Of a stretch of 64,000 bases of DNA, positions 11,773-60,876 are shown piece after piece. Within the stretch, counting starts at the first letter, position 1, and each line of letters opens with the position of its first letter. Below the pieces are notes generated by a model. It was not told where the DNA came from. It worked only from the letters and a program-made list of their open reading frames with translations, and made no database searches. The DNA comes from Escherichia coli (lineage in GTDB: Bacteria; Pseudomonadota; Gammaproteobacteria; Enterobacterales; Enterobacteriaceae), in NCBI RefSeq assembly GCF_048403405.1, contig NZ_CP183129.1; one strand, 5' to 3'. The position numbers and the translations under genes are program-made.

Positions 11773-12567
11773 ATGGATCTGTTGTACCGGGTAAAAACGC
11801 TTTGGGCCGCGCTGCGCGGTAATCATTACACCTGGCCTGCTATCGATATCTCTCTTCCCGGCAATCGCCATTTTCATCTGATTGGCAGTATTCATATGGG
11901 CAGCCACGATATGGCTCCCCTGCCCACCCGTTTGCTCAAAAAGCTCAAAAACGCCGATGCGCTGATCGTCGAGGCGGATGTTTCCACCAGCGATACGCCT
12001 TTTGCTAATTTGCCTGCCTGCGAGGCGCTGGAAGAGCGCATTAGCGAGGAGCAACTCCAAAACCTGCAGCACATTAGCCAGGAGATGGGCATTTCTACCT
12101 CACTCTTTTCTACCCAACCGCTGTGGCAAATCGCGATGGTTCTTCAGGCGACGCAGGCACAAAAACTGGGGCTGCGGGCAGAATACGGTATCGATTACCA
12201 GCTATTGCAGGCGGCGAAGCAACAACATAAACCCGTGATTGAACTGGAAGGGGCTGAAAACCAGATTGCCATGTTGCTCCAGCTCCCTGACAACGGACTG
12301 GCGCTGCTGGACGATACGCTGACCCACTGGCACACCAATGCACGGTTGCTGCAACAAATGATGAGCTGGTGGCTGAATGCGCCGCCGCAAAATAATGAAA
12401 TAACGCTGCCTAATACGTTCAGTCAGTCGCTGTATGATGTGCTGATGCATCAGCGAAATCTCGCCTGGCGGGACAAATTATGCGCCATGCCGCCGGGGCG
12501 CTATGTGGTCGCAGTCGGTGCACTACACCTGTATGGAGAAGGGAATTTGCCGCAGATGTTGCGCTAA
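11773..12567 (+). CDS. ybaP: TraB-family protein YbaP (264 aa)
   Basis: Complete ORF with AGGGAGG RBS; sequence recognisable. Confidence 0.9.
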   Translation: MDLLYRVKTLWAALRGNHYTWPAIDISLPGNRHFHLIGSIHMGSHDMAPLPTRLLKKLKNADALIVEADVSTSDTPFANLPACEALEERISEEQLQNLQHISQEMGISTSLFSTQPLWQIAMVLQATQAQKLGLRAEYGIDYQLLQAAKQQHKPVIELEGAENQIAMLLQLPDNGLALLDDTLTHWHTNARLLQQMMSWWLNAPPQNNEITLPNTFSQSLYDVLMHQRNLAWRDKLCAMPPGRYVVAVGALHLYGEGNLPQMLR

Positions 12568-12649
12568 AAAAATGGCCAATATCGCTATTGGCCCGTCAAA
12601 GAGGAATTTCATATTTTTATTATTATGCCGTCACTTTAAGCGACGGTGT
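12566..12649 (-). ncRNA. chiX: ChiX (SroB/MicM) small regulatory RNA, 84 nt
   Basis: Reverse complement reads ACACCGUCGCUUAAAGUGACGGCAUAAUAAUAAAAAUAUGAAAUUCCUCUUUGACGGGCCAAUAGCGAUAUUGGCCAUUUUUUU with the CCUCUUUGACGGG seed and terminator hairpin; lies between ybaP and ybaK. Confidence 0.85.
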
Positions 12650-18324: not shown

Positions 18325-18408
18325 GTAGGCATGATAAGACGCGCCAGCGTCGCATCAGGCATCGAGAGCCAAATGCCAGATGCGGCGTGAACGCCTTATC
18401 TGGCCTAC
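18325..18408. repeat. Two REP units in opposite orientation (BIME) between ybaL and gsk
   Basis: GTAGGCATGATAAGACGCGCCAGCGTCGCATCAGGC and GCCAGATGCGGCGTGAACGCCTTATCTGGCCTAC match the enterobacterial REP pattern. Confidence 0.8.
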
Positions 18409-43016: not shown

Positions 43017-43130
43017 GGGTGGGGGCCCTGCCAGCTACATCCCGGCACACGCGTCATCTGCCTTGGCTGCTTCCTTCCGGACCTGACCTGGTAAACAGAG
43101 TAGCGTTGCGGGAGAACCAACAGAGCCCCC
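43017..43130 (-). ncRNA. ffs: 4.5S RNA (signal recognition particle RNA), 114 nt
   Basis: Reverse complement reads GGGGGCUCUGUUGGUUCUCCCGCAACGCUACUCUGUUUACCAGGUCAGGUCCGGAAGGAAGCAGCCAAGGCAGAUGACGCGUGUGCCGGGAUGUAGCUGGCAGGGCCCCCACCC. Confidence 0.95.
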
Positions 43131-44415: not shown

Positions 44416-45276
44416 ATGAGTCAGGCGCTAAAAAATTTACTGACATTGTTAAATCTGGAAAAAATTGAGGAAGGACTCTTTCGCGGCCAGAGTGAAGATT
44501 TAGGTTTACGCCAGGTGTTTGGCGGCCAGGTCGTGGGTCAGGCCTTGTATGCTGCAAAAGAGACCGTCCCTGAAGAGCGGCTGGTACATTCGTTTCATAG
44601 CTACTTTCTTCGCCCTGGCGATAGTAAGAAGCCGATTATTTATGATGTCGAAACGCTGCGTGACGGTAACAGCTTCAGCGCCCGCCGGGTTGCTGCTATT
44701 CAAAACGGCAAACCGATTTTTTATATGACTGCCTCTTTCCAGGCACCAGAAGCGGGTTTCGAACATCAAAAAACGATGCCGTCCGCGCCAGCGCCTGATG
44801 GCCTGCCTTCGGAAACGCAAATCGCCCAATCGCTGGCGCACCTGCTGCCGCCAGTGCTGAAAGATAAATTCATCTGCGATCGTCCGCTTGAAGTCCGTCC
44901 GGTGGAGTTTCATAACCCACTGAAAGGGCACGTCGCAGAACCGCATCGTCAGGTGTGGATCCGCGCAAATGGTAGCGTGCCGGATGATCTGCGCGTTCAT
45001 CAGTATCTGCTCGGTTACGCTTCTGATCTTAACTTCCTGCCGGTAGCTCTACAGCCGCACGGCATCGGTTTTCTCGAACCAGGAATTCAGATAGCGACCA
45101 TCGACCATTCCATGTGGTTCCATCGCCCGTTTAATTTGAATGAATGGCTGCTGTATAGCGTGGAGAGCACCTCGGCGTCCAGCGCTCGCGGCTTTGTGCG
45201 CGGTGAGTTTTATACCCAGAATGGCGTGCTGGTTGCCTCGACCGTTCAGGAAGGGGTAATGCGTAATCATAATTAA
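44416..45276 (+). CDS. tesB: Acyl-CoA thioesterase II (286 aa)
   Basis: Track ORF trimmed to [24 protein letters not shown]. Confidence 0.93.
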
Positions 45277-45314
45277 AAAAATAGCCGGAGGTGAAAACCG
45301 TCCGGCTGTTTTTT
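45275..45314. terminator. Bidirectional intrinsic terminator between convergent tesB and amtB
   Basis: AGCCGGA-N11-TCCGGCT flanked by AAAAAAA upstream and TTTTTT downstream. Confidence 0.8.
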
Positions 45315-45324
45315 GCAGTGCTTG

Positions 45325-46611
45325 TTACGCGTTATAGGCATTCTCGCCGTGGCTGTTGACGTCCAGCCCTTCTCGCTCCTGTTCTTCAGGCACACGCAGA
45401 CCAACCGTCAGATCCGCCAGTTTGTAGCCAATAAACGCCACCACACCGGACCAGACAATCGTAATGGCAATGCTTTCCAGCTGTACCAGCAACTGATGGC
45501 CCATCGTCACACCTTCAGCGAAGCCCACGCCGCCCAGCGAGCTGGCGGCAAAAATCCCGGTCATGATACAGCCGACAATGCCACAAACGCCGTGCACACC
45601 AAAGACATCGCAGGGATCATCCACCCGCAGCAAGCGTTTGAGCATGGTAACGCCCCACAAGCCCGCTAGACCCGCTACCACGCCGATAATCAACGCGCCG
45701 CCAACACCAATGTAGCCACAGGCTGGCGTCACGCCGACCAGACCGGCAATCGCGCCAGAACACGCTCCCAGCAGTGAAGGCTTTCCGCGCAGCGCCCATT
45801 CACCGAAGATCCAGCCAAGAATTGCTGCCGCCGTTGCGACCACAGTATTCACAAATGCCAGTGCCGCGATTTCATTCGCCGTGCCCGCTGACCCGGCGTT
45901 AAAGCCAAACCAACCGATATAGAGAATGGCAGTCCCGGTGAAGACCATCGGCAGGTTGTGCGGTTTAAACGCCTCTTTACCGAAGCCCACGCGTTTGCCT
46001 ATCAGATATGCGCCCACCAGACCGGCGATTGCGGCGTTAATGTGCACCACCGTGCCACCCGCGAAATCCAGCGCACCGTGAGAAGCCAGCAAACCACCGC
46101 CCCACACCATATGCGCAATCGGAATGTAGGAGAGCGTCAGCCATACCACCACGAAAATCAACACAGCTGAGAAGCGGATTCGTTCCGCCAGCGCCCCAAC
46201 TATCAAGCCTACGGTAATGCAGGCAAACGATCCCTGAAACGCTACGTGGATATACTGATAAATGCTGCCCATCACCGCCGTCAGTTCGATGTTTTTCAGC
46301 ATCAGCCAGTTAATGTTGCCGAAGAAGTTGTTGCCCTCACCAAACGCCAGCGAGTAACCGTAAACCACCCAGAGAATACAGACCAGTGCAAACGTCACCG
46401 TCACCTGCGTCAGCATCGACAGCACGTTTTTGCCGCGAATCAACCCACCGTAAAACAGGGCAATCCCCGGAATAGTCATAAACAGCACCAGCGCAGTACA
46501 GATCATCATAAACGCATTGTCGGCTTTATCGGCCACCGCAGGTGCAGCCATTACCAGTCCCGGCAGCATCGCCAGTGAAGCAAGCCCAGTTTTTATCGTC
46601 GCTATCTTCAT
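45325..46611 (-). CDS. amtB: Ammonium transporter AmtB (428 aa)
   Basis: Complete ORF; signal peptide plus 11-TM Amt fold sequence. Confidence 0.96.
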   Translation of the reverse strand: MKIATIKTGLASLAMLPGLVMAAPAVADKADNAFMMICTALVLFMTIPGIALFYGGLIRGKNVLSMLTQVTVTFALVCILWVVYGYSLAFGEGNNFFGNINWLMLKNIELTAVMGSIYQYIHVAFQGSFACITVGLIVGALAERIRFSAVLIFVVVWLTLSYIPIAHMVWGGGLLASHGALDFAGGTVVHINAAIAGLVGAYLIGKRVGFGKEAFKPHNLPMVFTGTAILYIGWFGFNAGSAGTANEIAALAFVNTVVATAAAILGWIFGEWALRGKPSLLGACSGAIAGLVGVTPACGYIGVGGALIIGVVAGLAGLWGVTMLKRLLRVDDPCDVFGVHGVCGIVGCIMTGIFAASSLGGVGFAEGVTMGHQLLVQLESIAITIVWSGVVAFIGYKLADLTVGLRVPEEQEREGLDVNSHGENAYNA

Positions 46612-46640
46612 TTTTCGTTCCTGTTGCTGTGTGCCAGAGA

Positions 46641-46979
46641 TTACAGCGCCGCTTCGTCGGCTTCGCCGGTACGAATACGAATGACGCGTTGCAATTCAGC
46701 GACGAAGATTTTGCCGTCGCCAATTTTTCCGGTGTAAGCCGCCTTACTGACGATATCGATCACTTCATCGAGTTGGTCATCAGCAATCGCCACATCAATT
46801 TTTACTTTTGGCAGGAAGTTGACGCTGTATTCCGCTCCCCGGTACAGCTCGGCATGCCCTTTCTGACGCCCGAAACCTTTCACTTCGGTGACGGTCAGGC
46901 CCTGAATACCAATGGAAGATAACGCTTCACGAACGTCTTCCAGCTTGAATGGTTTGATTATCACGGTCACCAGCTTCAT
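46641..46979 (-). CDS. glnK: Nitrogen regulatory protein PII-2 GlnK (112 aa)
   Basis: Track ORF trimmed to MKLVTVIIKPFKLEDVREAL; uridylylation-loop Tyr51 context (RGAEY) present. Confidence 0.95.
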   Translation of the reverse strand: MKLVTVIIKPFKLEDVREALSSIGIQGLTVTEVKGFGRQKGHAELYRGAEYSVNFLPKVKIDVAIADDQLDEVIDIVSKAAYTGKIGDGKIFVAELQRVIRIRTGEADEAAL

Positions 46980-47031
46980 AGATCCCCTCCGGTCAGAATT
47001 CGGTAATGGTTCTGCTACACGAAGAAGGTAT

Positions 47032-47047
47032 TGCAAGCGGTGTGCCA
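47032..47047 (-). promoter_or_regulatory. sigma54 (-24/-12) promoter of glnK-amtB
   Basis: Minus strand reads TGGCAC-ACCGC-TTGCA about 50 nt upstream of the glnK ATG; TGCAC-containing repeats (likely NtrC sites) at ~47100-47140. Confidence 0.8.
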
Positions 47048-47159
47048 GAAATGAAAAACGAGAAAGAGAGCAGGAAGTTAAGAAGATTGAAAATGAAAAC
47101 GCACTATGACAGTGCACAGTGCGTTACATTTTTGCACCAACGATGAAATATTGCGCTAT

Positions 47160-50706
<3,547 letters not shown>

Positions 50707-60689: not shown

Positions 60690-60772
60690 AGAGCTCTCTC
60701 TTAGTTTAATTTCCGCCAGGTAATCAGATGACACGACTGTGCTTCACGCCATCTATTAACATGTACGTCAGT

Positions 60773-60799
60773 ATATGGGGATGTTTCCCCCACATTCAA
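60773..60799 (-). promoter_or_regulatory. sigma32 heat-shock promoter of lon
   Basis: Minus strand reads TTGAAT-N13-CCCCATAT, about 85 nt upstream of the lon ATG. Confidence 0.75.
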
Positions 60800-60876
60800 C
60801 GCCGAGAATAGAGGAAAAATTAAAGGGGAGATAAAATCCCCCCTTTTTGGTTAACTAATTGTATGGGAATGGTTAA

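Follow-up and report, generated by a model that had tools for sequence, protein, structure and literature searches.

The sigma54/NtrC promoter of the Escherichia coli glnK-amtB operon and a possible mdlB terminator overlapping its enhancer

The glnK-amtB locus and its sigma54 core promoter

The window, i.e., the whole 64,000-nucleotide (64-kb) stretch of DNA that was analysed, is part of an E. coli chromosome and carries the genes in the order mdlA-mdlB-glnK-amtB, all on the minus strand. The mdlB stop codon occupies positions 47162..47160 and the A of the glnK ATG is at 46979. The spacer between these genes holds the elements described here; this region was located between mdlB and glnK in 5423 of 5426 complete E. 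coli genomes, and mdlB lay upstream of glnK in the same direction in all the Enterobacterales genomes checked (14/14). An earlier note, made from the sequence alone, had advised a comparison with the K-12 glnK promoter. The mdlB-glnK spacer was found to be equal to that of strain W3110 at every base except one, a T/A difference at window position 47086, which is situated in the enhancer-promoter linker and outside every motif. Hence, the element is the same as K-12 glnKp, with an identical 17-mer core and the same mdlB>glnK>amtB<tesB context, and differs from it by nothing functional. The K-12 promoter was reportedly studied by van Heeswijk et al. in 1996 and by Atkinson et al. in 2002, the latter being said to be the primary paper on the glnK enhancer and on glnK promoter activation. 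The genes and the elements next to the transcription start are as follows.

46641..46979, minus strand: glnK coding sequence, 112 aa, PII-family protein (ORF list and RefSeq annotation of matching K-12 DNA)
46611..45325, minus strand: amtB, downstream of glnK
46983..46990, minus strand: glnK Shine-Dalgarno sequence GGAGGGGA, read from the sequence
47019..47023, minus strand: predicted transcription start, +1 near 47021, placed from the -12 GC and the -24/-12 geometry
47032..47048, minus strand: sigma54 core promoter glnKp, CTGGCACACCGCTTGCA, with GG 47046/47045 at -25/-24 and GC 47034/47033 at -13/-12
47048..47059, minus strand: T-rich block GTTTTTCATTTC, abutting the -24 element on its upstream side

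The earlier note had called a near-consensus TGGCAC-N5-TTGCA element about 50 nt upstream of glnK. This element is present at 47047..47032 on the minus strand, and the distance from its last base (47032) to the A of the ATG was measured at 53 nt. It is the sole exact match on both strands of the window, for an expectation of 0.05 from dinucleotide shuffles (a match occurred in 5 of 100 shuffles), and the looser pattern TGGYAY-N5-YTGCW likewise gave one match only, at glnKp. The GG at -24 and the GC at -12 thus stand at the fixed spacing of sigma54 promoters, upstream of a gene with the same orientation. The looser pattern was found about 59-104 nt before the ATG in 56 distinct Enterobacterales regions, for which the pattern itself was the selection filter, and was also seen at some more distant gammaproteobacterial loci. 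Published experiments bear on the same element: CTGGCACACCGCTTGCA was reported at glnK by sigma54 ChIP-seq as motif OS03 with a "distance 42" (Bonocora 2015, PMC4591121), gSELEX yielded an RpoN-holoenzyme peak together with an NtrC peak in the mdlB>glnK spacer and the same 17-mer motif (Shimada 2021, PMC8743547), and glnK expression fell 18.8-fold upon rpoN deletion in a study that tabulated exactly this promoter (Zhao 2010, PMC2831329).

The predicted 5' UTR is about 42 nt long, in agreement with the "distance 42" quoted above (Bonocora 2015, PMC4591121), and a conserved cGTgt occupies the predicted start position in an alignment of 52 sequences. Downstream, the Shine-Dalgarno sequence is kept as GGAGGGGATCTATG across Enterobacteriaceae. 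Upstream, the T-rich block has a conserved consensus, tTTTTcATTTC (52 distinct sequences), while the remainder of the linker is not conserved. A promoter scan of 46500..47500 returned no sigma70-like promoter, so that glnK shows no sign of a tandem sigma70 promoter like glnAp1, and an Rfam search of 46900..47300 with E <= 10 gave no match.

NtrC enhancer sites and their apparent helical phasing

The bare dyad consensus TGCAC-N7-GTGCA, with at most one mismatch, was found 3 times in the window for 3.7 expected, i.e., at chance level, and a weight matrix was therefore used instead. This matrix was obtained by de novo expectation-maximization (EM) on 12 other NtrC ChIP-bound spacers, glnK being excluded, and converged on TGCACCATAATGGTGCA. 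An 18-nt pattern, TGCAC-N7-GGTGCA, was dropped as it returned only noise (200 matches for 225 expected). The sites retained upstream of glnKp are listed below.

47100..47116, minus strand: NtrC site B (strong), TGCACTGTCATAGTGCG, centre 47108, about -87
47120..47136, minus strand: NtrC site A (weak partner), TGCAAAAATGTAACGCA, centre 47128, about -107, 20 bp from site B
47133..47139, minus strand: perfect NtrC right half-site TGGTGCA, core of TTTTGCACCAACG, overlapping the left end of site A
47152..47168, minus strand: candidate distal NtrC site D', AGCGCCTGAATAGCGCA, centre 47160, about -139, overlapping the mdlB stop codon

The earlier note had proposed two NtrC enhancer motifs 60-100 nt further upstream and had suggested a matrix match as a check. 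Their distance was close to this estimate, 53-95 nt upstream of the -24 element. No strand had been stated, and both strings had been quoted as plus-strand text although the minus strand carries the genes as well as the promoter. The first string, GCACTATGACAGTGCACAGTGC (plus 47101..47122), includes the dyad TGCACTGTCATAGTGCG (minus 47116..47100) and is thus the strong site B. With 18.16 bits on the independent matrix, site B ranked first of 63,984 positions, the runner-up reaching 11.2 bits and about 0.07 such matches being expected per 64 kb. By this matrix it is a 17-bp dyad of the TGCACCA-N3-TGGTGCA kind, and its score falls inside the range of the primary NtrC sites at 10 of the 12 training promoters (15.3-20.7 bits). 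The claim held only in part for the second string, TTTTGCACCAACG (plus 47130..47142), which reads CGTTGGTGCAAAA on the minus strand and consists of a half-site and a weak site, not a full strong site. The TGG of its TGGTGCA is at least 90% conserved (alignment A2); taken as a full 17-mer (47149..47133) it scored -2.8 bits in E. coli, and 3.8-8.4 bits in some genera. Site A reached 2.18 bits (rank 213, top 0.3%) and is the sole positive-scoring position besides site B between the glnK ATG and about 47148. The A and B sites, taken as a pair at 20 bp, form the top-scoring pair in the window (about 0.03 expected). This offset places two sites on the same helical face, site A being weak and its binding by NtrC predicted.

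A third candidate site, D', lies just outside the region that had been described earlier; it scored 8.1 bits (rank 16 in the window). At exactly 62 bp upstream of site B, most other genera have a site that scores higher (7-14.6 bits).

The nitrogen-limitation control called from the sequence is borne out by published work. NtrC ChIP-seq gave a 39.7-fold peak at glnK-amtB, and glnK mRNA was not readily detected after glnG deletion (Brown 2014, PMC4066584). The ChIP bin 471741-471821 corresponds to window positions 47060..46980, over the core promoter and the leader; it lies 40-100 bp downstream of the proposed sites, which is within ChIP resolution and does not pinpoint them. The supplement of the gSELEX study gave no usable NtrC site list for glnK (Shimada 2021, PMC8743547). 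Besides, an exclusive dependence of the glnK promoter on NtrC phosphorylation, with a specific activity 400-fold higher under starvation, has been published.

Given that the simple dyad consensus occurs at chance level, the motifs could be taken for chance matches. Alternatively, they could form an enhancer for another activator, several sigma54 activators besides NtrC being present in E. coli. Such a reading is extremely improbable in view of the first rank of site B with a 7-bit margin, the uniqueness of the promoter match in the window, the conservation across genera, the NtrC ChIP-seq and gSELEX peaks and the loss of glnK mRNA in the glnG deletion. The matrix result, combined with the dependence on glnG and rpoN reported in the literature, in effect refutes it. 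The combination that the earlier note had set as its own refutation, no matrix match upstream and indifference to rpoN, is thus the opposite of what was found. The region is almost certainly glnKp, the minus-strand promoter of the glnK-amtB operon in E. coli, which depends on sigma54 and is activated by NtrC. This promoter is already known to the textbooks as a sigma54/NtrC promoter, and ChIP, SELEX and mutant data on it have been published; the statement made from the sequence adds nothing new, and its value is the confirmation of a correct call made without tools.

Then, the spacing of these elements was compared across genera. The comparison set comprised 56 distinct upstream regions, kept only if TGGYAY-N5-YTGCW was present, from Escherichia, Citrobacter, Enterobacter-like taxa, Klebsiella sp., Yersinia, Photorhabdus, Rahnella and Acerihabitans. 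Among metagenome pattern matches, 48 of 120 stretches (about 40%) were glnK loci, and chance 17-mer matches were removed by translation. In the 56 Enterobacterales regions, the half-sites of site B are conserved and its centre is variable, with scores of 13.8-19.7 bits over the 41 distinct regions scored. Site A occurs at the fixed 20-bp offset in nearly all regions, reaching 3.9-11.7 bits in Yersinia, Rahnella and Acerihabitans, and is absent at this offset in Photorhabdus and in L014. The distance from site B to the promoter falls into six classes (69, 78.5, 90, 100.5, 112.5 and 123), a ladder whose best period is 10.75-11 bp (about 10.8; R = 0.954, p about 0.002). In E. coli, the centres at about -87, -107 and -139 are at looping distance and in helical phase upstream of the sigma54 promoter. 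Enhancer and promoter thus appear to be kept in helical phase, and the 10.8-bp ladder may show, in natural variation, the helical-phase rule that short NtrC loops obey. As such, it offers comparative support for a face-of-the-helix constraint that has so far been known mainly from engineered constructs.

This arrangement resembles that of glnAp2, in which a sigma54 core is likewise preceded by NtrC dyads on the same helical face and activated by looping; the strong glnAp2 sites have been published at -108 and -140, for centres at about -87, -107 and -139 at glnK. However, the two glnAp2 sites, 32 bp from each other, are both near-consensus (19.8 and 19.3 bits), whereas glnK has one strong site (18.2 bits) with weak partners of 2.2 and 8.1 bits. 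This weaker set fits published statements that more NtrC~P is required at glnK and nac than at glnA. Moreover, "governor" sites and an overlap with a sigma70 promoter, glnAp1, are features of glnAp2 and not of glnK. The nac, astC, rutA, ddpX, gltI and patA promoters share with glnK the combination of one strong NtrC dyad and, 20-22 bp from it, a weak one. In a non-systematic reading of the matrix sites, those of these six promoters differ from glnK site B in that they are not followed by a T-run and do not lie tens of nt past a co-directional gene.

A possible mdlB terminator built on the strong NtrC site

The T-run and the neighbouring gene end draw attention to what the enhancer DNA would encode in RNA transcribed from mdlB.

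47089..47125, minus strand: terminator-like element, hairpin AACGCACUGUG-CACUGU-CAUAGUGCGUU (47125..47098) followed by UUUUCAUUUUC

This element is made of the 3' end of site A, a 3-nt gap and site B. It was flagged by a terminator scan 35 nt past the mdlB stop codon, and it consists of a stem-loop and an immediate U-rich tract downstream of a co-directional gene. Like intrinsic terminators, it has a stem-loop directly followed by a U-run just past a stop codon on the same strand, as well as an A-run on the 5' side. However, its stem is only moderately stable and GC-poor, its U-run is interrupted (UUUUCAUUUUC) and its stem is also a transcription-factor binding site. The palindrome in the TGCAC-repeat region probably serves as an mdlB transcription terminator as well. 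Stated in full, as a Rho-independent terminator of mdlAB acting at the RNA level and compatible with the enhancer role, we consider this proposal as evenly balanced. The hairpin (47125..47098) and the U-run (47099..47089) would then halt polymerases that come from mdlB some 70 nt short of glnKp.

The predicted fold is in line with this proposal: the hairpin has 11 pairs and a minimum free energy of -14.9 kcal/mol, the 81-nt fold beats its shuffles (z = -2.76), and the element belongs to those matching a stricter hairpin-plus-TTTT pattern. On the other side, this strict pattern gave 45 matches in the window for 18 in simulated sequence, i.e., about 40% false positives, the permissive terminator scan stayed at shuffle level (2 found for 0.9 +/- 1.0), and the stem is AT/GU-rich compared with textbook terminators. 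None of the 3'-end and terminator survey supplements that were searched mentions mdlB.

Conservation provides further arguments. The four T's right after site B are invariant in all 29 aligned rows of Enterobacteriaceae type (29/29), the linker beyond them being unalignable, and the T-run is present in 40 of 47 distinct segments. The NtrC sites at glnA, nac and other promoters are without such a T-run, which is hence not required for NtrC binding. Besides, 92.8% of the hairpin pairs are kept, compared with 24-66% when the hairpin is slid, and the 3-nt A-B gap, which lies outside both NtrC 17-mers, co-varies with position 12 of site B (C-G in 24 cases, U-A in 4). This is, however, the only compensatory pair and probably reflects a single evolutionary event. 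In addition, RNAalifold favours two short hairpins at the positions of the DNA dyads, so that covariation cannot tell RNA structure from protein-binding symmetry. Part of the conservation of site A (AACGCA) could be due to its pairing as the left hairpin arm instead of NtrC contact. Finally, Yersinia, Photorhabdus, Rahnella and Acerihabitans retain the NtrC site and have no T-run, which speaks against a terminator; a substitute mdlB terminator was looked for in the genera without a T-run and none was found.

The T-run and the pyrimidine-rich linker could instead be features of the DNA itself, namely a bend, a flexible segment or a protein-binding tract aiding the NtrC-sigma54 loop. The loop spans only 69-124 bp and its observed lengths are spaced about 10.8 bp apart, so that its geometry matters; Yersinia has an A-run (CAAAAA) at the position of the T-run, an equivalent A-tract in duplex DNA, and a second conserved T-rich block abuts the -24 element. 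Yet the position of the T-run beside site B is fixed whatever the loop length, from 69 to 123 bp, no A/T tract occurs there in Photorhabdus, Rahnella, Acerihabitans and L120, and the linker has no convincing match, judged by eye only, to the IHF consensus (WATCAANNNNTTR). This explanation also leaves the covariation between the gap and site B unexplained, and we regard it as unlikely.

Returning to the terminator, the Enterobacteriaceae stretch of about 37 bp at 47125..47089 may be read twice, as a high-affinity NtrC enhancer in DNA and as an mdlAB terminator in RNA; we give this stronger proposal slightly less than an even chance. The two functions would then have co-evolved, as hinted at by the co-variation of the A-B gap with site-B position 12 and by the fact that, in Escherichia and Citrobacter, site B has drifted from the NtrC consensus. 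If the proposal is true, a single compact sequence would be selected jointly at the DNA and the RNA level, and this would help to explain both the departure of E. coli site B from the NtrC consensus and the fact that glnK is tightly off in nitrogen excess. NtrC bound at the terminator might also act as a roadblock.

Proposed activation of glnK and its insulation from mdlAB

The activation steps proposed for glnKp are those established for the sigma54/NtrC promoter class. The sigma54-RNA polymerase would form a closed complex on CTGGCACACCGCTTGCA (47048..47032), which would be unable to open the DNA unaided. Under nitrogen limitation, NtrC~P would bind the upstream enhancer, composed of the strong dyad at about -87 (47116..47100) and its weak partner 20 bp upstream at about -107 (47136..47120), with a possible distal site at about -139 (47168..47152). 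The NtrC oligomer would reach the polymerase by looping out the pyrimidine-rich linker of about 70 bp, and its ATP hydrolysis would drive promoter opening. Transcription would start near 47021, yielding an mRNA with a 42-nt leader and an exposed ribosome-binding site, GGAGGGGA. Besides, glnK would be insulated from the upstream mdlAB operon in two ways. In mdlB read-through RNA, the NtrC dyad and its flanks would form a hairpin with a U-run, likely an intrinsic terminator, and the CT-rich segment just upstream of +1 would mask the ribosome-binding site, a mechanism that has been published. If the terminator is real, this strictly nitrogen-controlled operon would thus have a two-layer insulation.

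47020..47028, minus strand: pyrimidine-rich anti-Shine-Dalgarno segment CCTTCTTC(G), between the -12 element and +1, transcribed only by read-through

The "insulator" described at glnKp is CT-rich, 7 nt long and centred at -4 (Levy et al. 2017, bioRxiv 10.1101/086108). The segment described here resembles it in that the CT-rich stretch between -12 and +1 pairs with the ribosome-binding site only in read-through RNA, but the published work relied on reporter constructs with a synthetic ribosome-binding site, whereas the native glnK leader was used here in silico. In this native E. coli context, the mean probability that the Shine-Dalgarno sequence is unpaired was 0.45 in RNA starting at +1 and 0.13 in RNA coming from upstream. 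The native E. coli arrangement gave 0.03, versus 0.26 for its own shuffles; E. coli glnKp thus behaves in silico as an anti-Shine-Dalgarno insulator.

The same calculation over 53 orthologous loci gave 0.248 for native, 0.233 for shuffled and 0.481 for flipped segments in silico. Across these loci, the effect is explained by the pyrimidine-rich composition of the segment. Conservation of the arrangement itself across genera was considered and rejected, shuffled segments sequestering the Shine-Dalgarno sequence equally well on average. Escherichia is the only genus in which the arrangement is clearly better than its own shuffles.

The glnK-amtB promoter and its NtrC sites

The window is chromosomal DNA of E. 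coli, in which the genes around the promoter are arranged as follows.

50706..48934, minus strand: mdlA
47162..47160, minus strand: stop codon of mdlB
46979..46641, minus strand: glnK
46611..45325, minus strand: amtB
plus strand, convergent with amtB: tesB

An earlier note had placed a sigma54 promoter about 50 nt before glnK, with upstream TGCAC repeats as NtrC enhancer sites. Indeed, TGGCAC-ACCGC-TTGCA at 47047..47032 (minus strand) is the sole exact match to TGGCAC-N5-TTGCA on both strands of the 64 kb (0.05 expected), and the final base of its -12 element stands 53 nt before the glnK ATG. The motif centre of CTGGCACACCGCTTGCA, given for glnK by sigma54 ChIP-seq, coincides exactly with this position (PMC4591121). 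Deletion of rpoN lowers glnK expression 18.8-fold, the promoter being tabulated at -68..-51 (PMC2831329), and genomic SELEX places peaks of both RpoN-holoenzyme and NtrC within the mdlB>glnK spacer (PMC8743547).

The simple NtrC dyad consensus occurs in the window at chance level (3 found versus 3.7 expected), and a stronger test was therefore needed for the repeats. A matrix was learned by palindromic EM, with no consensus supplied, from 12 MG1655 Ntr-regulated spacers (gltI, glnH, rutA, ddpX, astC, nac, hisJ, argT, patA, yhdW, glnA, and yeaG; glnK excluded) drawn from the NtrC ChIP-seq peaks listed by Brown et al. (2014). Many different seeds led to TGCACCATAATGGTGCA, the canonical NtrC box. 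The first proposed motif, GCACTATGACAGTGCACAGTGC, includes the dyad TGCACTGTCATAGTGCG (47116..47100, minus strand; site B), which ranks first of 63,984 window positions under this glnK-independent matrix, with 18.16 bits (second best 11.2; about 0.07 expected per 64 kb), a score comparable to those of the primary sites at 10 of the 12 training promoters (15.3-20.7 bits). The second motif, TTTTGCACCAACG, which reads CGTTGGTGCAAAA on the coding strand, stood only in part: it contains the perfect NtrC half-site TGGTGCA together with the beginning of TGCAAAAATGTAACGCA (47136..47120, minus strand; site A), a weak 17-mer scoring 2.18 bits (rank 213). From the glnK ATG to about 47148, no other position besides site B scores positively, and sites A and B form the window's best pair at 20-bp spacing (about 0.03 expected). 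Just beyond the region first proposed, a third NtrC-like candidate, AGCGCCTGAATAGCGCA (47168..47152, minus strand; 8.1 bits, rank 16), lies across the mdlB stop codon. Relative to the predicted +1, the centres fall at about -87 (site B), about -107 (site A), and -139 (third candidate). GCACTGT stands twice in tandem (GCACTGTGCACTGT; 47109..47122, minus strand), so that two pentamers resembling the left half-site lie 7 bp apart; of these, only the second matches the right half GTGCG in register.

In published NtrC ChIP-seq, the glnK-amtB peak reaches 39.7-fold, and deleting glnG leaves glnK mRNA hard to detect (PMC4066584). The promoter is used as a reporter purely of NtrC~P (phosphorylated NtrC) activity, rising about 400-fold under starvation (PMC3870243). 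The published ChIP-seq bin (471741-471821) corresponds to window 47060..46980, which places it over the core promoter and leader, displaced 40-100 bp downstream from the predicted NtrC sites; this offset is within ChIP resolution and may reflect that resolution or cross-linking through a loop, and the bin falls short of site-level proof. With the matrix match, the ChIP-seq and SELEX peaks and the effects of both deletions, neither lack of an NtrC match nor independence from rpoN was found. The sigma54/NtrC promoter of glnK is thus correctly identified and already known; the only parts for which we found no description are a dual enhancer/terminator reading and a spacing ladder, both of which we infer.

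By the mechanism established for this promoter class, sigma54 holoenzyme waits on 47048..47032 as a closed complex. When nitrogen is limiting, NtrC~P occupies the strong site, its weak partner and possibly the site at -139, oligomerises, loops out the short phased linker and opens the promoter; in the glnK-amtB mRNA then made from about 47021, the predicted start, the ribosome-binding site is accessible. The enhancer has one near-consensus site whereas glnAp2 has two (19.8 and 19.3 bits), which fits the published view that glnK fires only after NtrC~P accumulation (PMC3870243). Besides, the three glnK centres echo the glnAp2 sites at -108 and -140, and the pairing of one strong and one weak site 20-22 bp apart recurs at astC, nac, rutA, ddpX, gltI, and patA.

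Enhancer spacing across genera

Related loci were collected by scanning a genome collection with GlnK and metagenomes with a DNA pattern derived from the beginning of glnK, both filtered by translation, which gave 56 distinct upstream regions. Regions lacking the -24/-12 element were dropped, so that its presence throughout this set is by construction. The upstream co-directional gene was mdlB in 14/14 Enterobacterales genomes checked. Site B keeps its half-sites around a variable centre (13.8-19.7 bits; 41 distinct regions scored), and a second site lies exactly 20 bp upstream of it in nearly all regions, Photorhabdus and one further locus (L014) being without. In most genera, a third site (7-14.6 bits) precedes site B by exactly 62 bp and is stronger than its E. 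coli counterpart, for which the distance is 52 bp.

Between site B and the -24 element, six classes of distance occur: 69, 78.5, 90, 100.5, 112.5, and 123 bp (loci L003-L019 and L083-L201). The best period is 10.75-11 bp (about 10.8; resultant length R = 0.954), with p about 0.002 versus six random distances, a period scan of 10-11.5 bp being allowed for. Short NtrC loops depend on the face of the helix, and the ladder agrees with this dependence: insertions and deletions in the linker may be tolerated only as whole helical turns. Because the classes number six and the loci share ancestry, the statistic is suggestive and not strong. Within the linker, a T-rich block directly 5' of the -24 element (47048..47059, minus strand; consensus tTTTTcATTTC) is kept across 52 distinct sequences, while other linker parts are not; GTTTTCATTTTC, at 47100..47089 after site B, nearly repeats it.

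A terminator-like hairpin overlapping the enhancer

A terminator scan marks 47125..47098 (minus strand), followed by TTCATTTTCA. In RNA reading through from mdlB, AACGCACUGUG-CACUGU-CAUAGUGCGUU is predicted to form an 11-bp hairpin of -14.9 kcal/mol with UUUUCAUUUUC directly 3', and the fold of the 81-nt region is more stable than its shuffles (z = -2.76). This hairpin differs from the bare NtrC dyad, as its 5' arm runs from the end of site A across the 3-nt gap into site B, of which it takes in the first two bases. A T-run (at least 6 T in 8) comes right after site B in every Enterobacteriaceae-type sequence (40/47 distinct segments, all 29 aligned rows); its first four T's are invariant, and the linker past it cannot be aligned. 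Yersinia, Photorhabdus, Rahnella, Acerihabitans, and one metagenomic lineage have the NtrC site without the T-run, and no substitute terminator was seen in the genera lacking it. Pair counting gave 92.8% paired cells versus 24-66% in slid controls, with one compensatory pair, in which gap position 2 and site-B position 12 are C-G in 24 sequences and U-A in 4. RNAalifold favours two short hairpins coincident with the DNA dyads; hence, covariation is unable to separate RNA structure from protein-binding symmetry. A stricter hairpin-plus-TTTT criterion gave 45 window hits versus about 18 simulated, i.e., about 40% false positives, and no mention of mdlB was found in the published terminator or 3'-end datasets that were searched. 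We give about an even chance to 47089..47125 (minus strand) being an intrinsic terminator of mdlAB that shares sequence with the glnK enhancer. Such a role would be additional to that of NtrC and would not replace it.

Leader insulation and the surrounding locus

Levy et al. described CT-rich anti-Shine-Dalgarno segments in glnKp, the key one centred at -4, which silence the downstream gene only upon read-through transcription of the promoter (bioRxiv 10.1101/086108). The corresponding features are:

47020..47028, minus strand: anti-Shine-Dalgarno segment
46983..46990, minus strand: glnK Shine-Dalgarno

In silico, GGAGGGGA in the native leader has a mean unpaired probability of 0.45 in RNA starting at 47021 versus about 0.13 in RNAs from upstream, where pairing with CCUUCUUC (47028..47021) sequesters it; predicted folding thus reproduces the published insulator in its native glnK context. 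Over 53 orthologous loci, the accessibility of the ribosome-binding site falls from 0.48 to 0.25. The effect is equal with a shuffled promoter segment (0.23) and lost with a flipped one (0.48; Wilcoxon p = 6.5e-9), so that the conserved trait is the richness of the sense strand in pyrimidines (66%). A conserved anti-Shine-Dalgarno arrangement across genera was rejected, since shuffling the segments left the ribosome-binding site masked as well as in the native order; the arrangement is clearly better than its own shuffles in Escherichia only (0.03 versus 0.26).

A 361-nt query across the mdlB-glnK spacer was matched in 5423/5426 complete E. coli genomes, flanked by mdlB and glnK every time. 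Comparison with K-12, advised earlier, revealed a single base different from W3110 (T/A at window 47086), outside all motifs discussed. E. coli strain 7/2 (NZ_CP023820.1, 2141..2601) has lost mdlA and most of mdlB through a deletion, the final 117 nt of mdlB being joined to an SgrR-family regulator pseudogene; its glnK enhancer and promoter show 100% identity to the window. What resembles a bidirectional terminator, shared by the convergent genes amtB and tesB, lies between them at about 45270..45320; it is a strong hairpin (-19.7 and -15.5 kcal/mol on the two strands) that has T-runs on either strand. Five Rfam matches at the gathering threshold are as expected for this region of the E. coli chromosome:

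60761-60856, plus strand: sraA
26328-26392, minus strand: DnaX frameshift element
12566-12649, minus strand: sroB
18328-18405, minus strand: naRNA4
43026-43122, minus strand: SRP RNA
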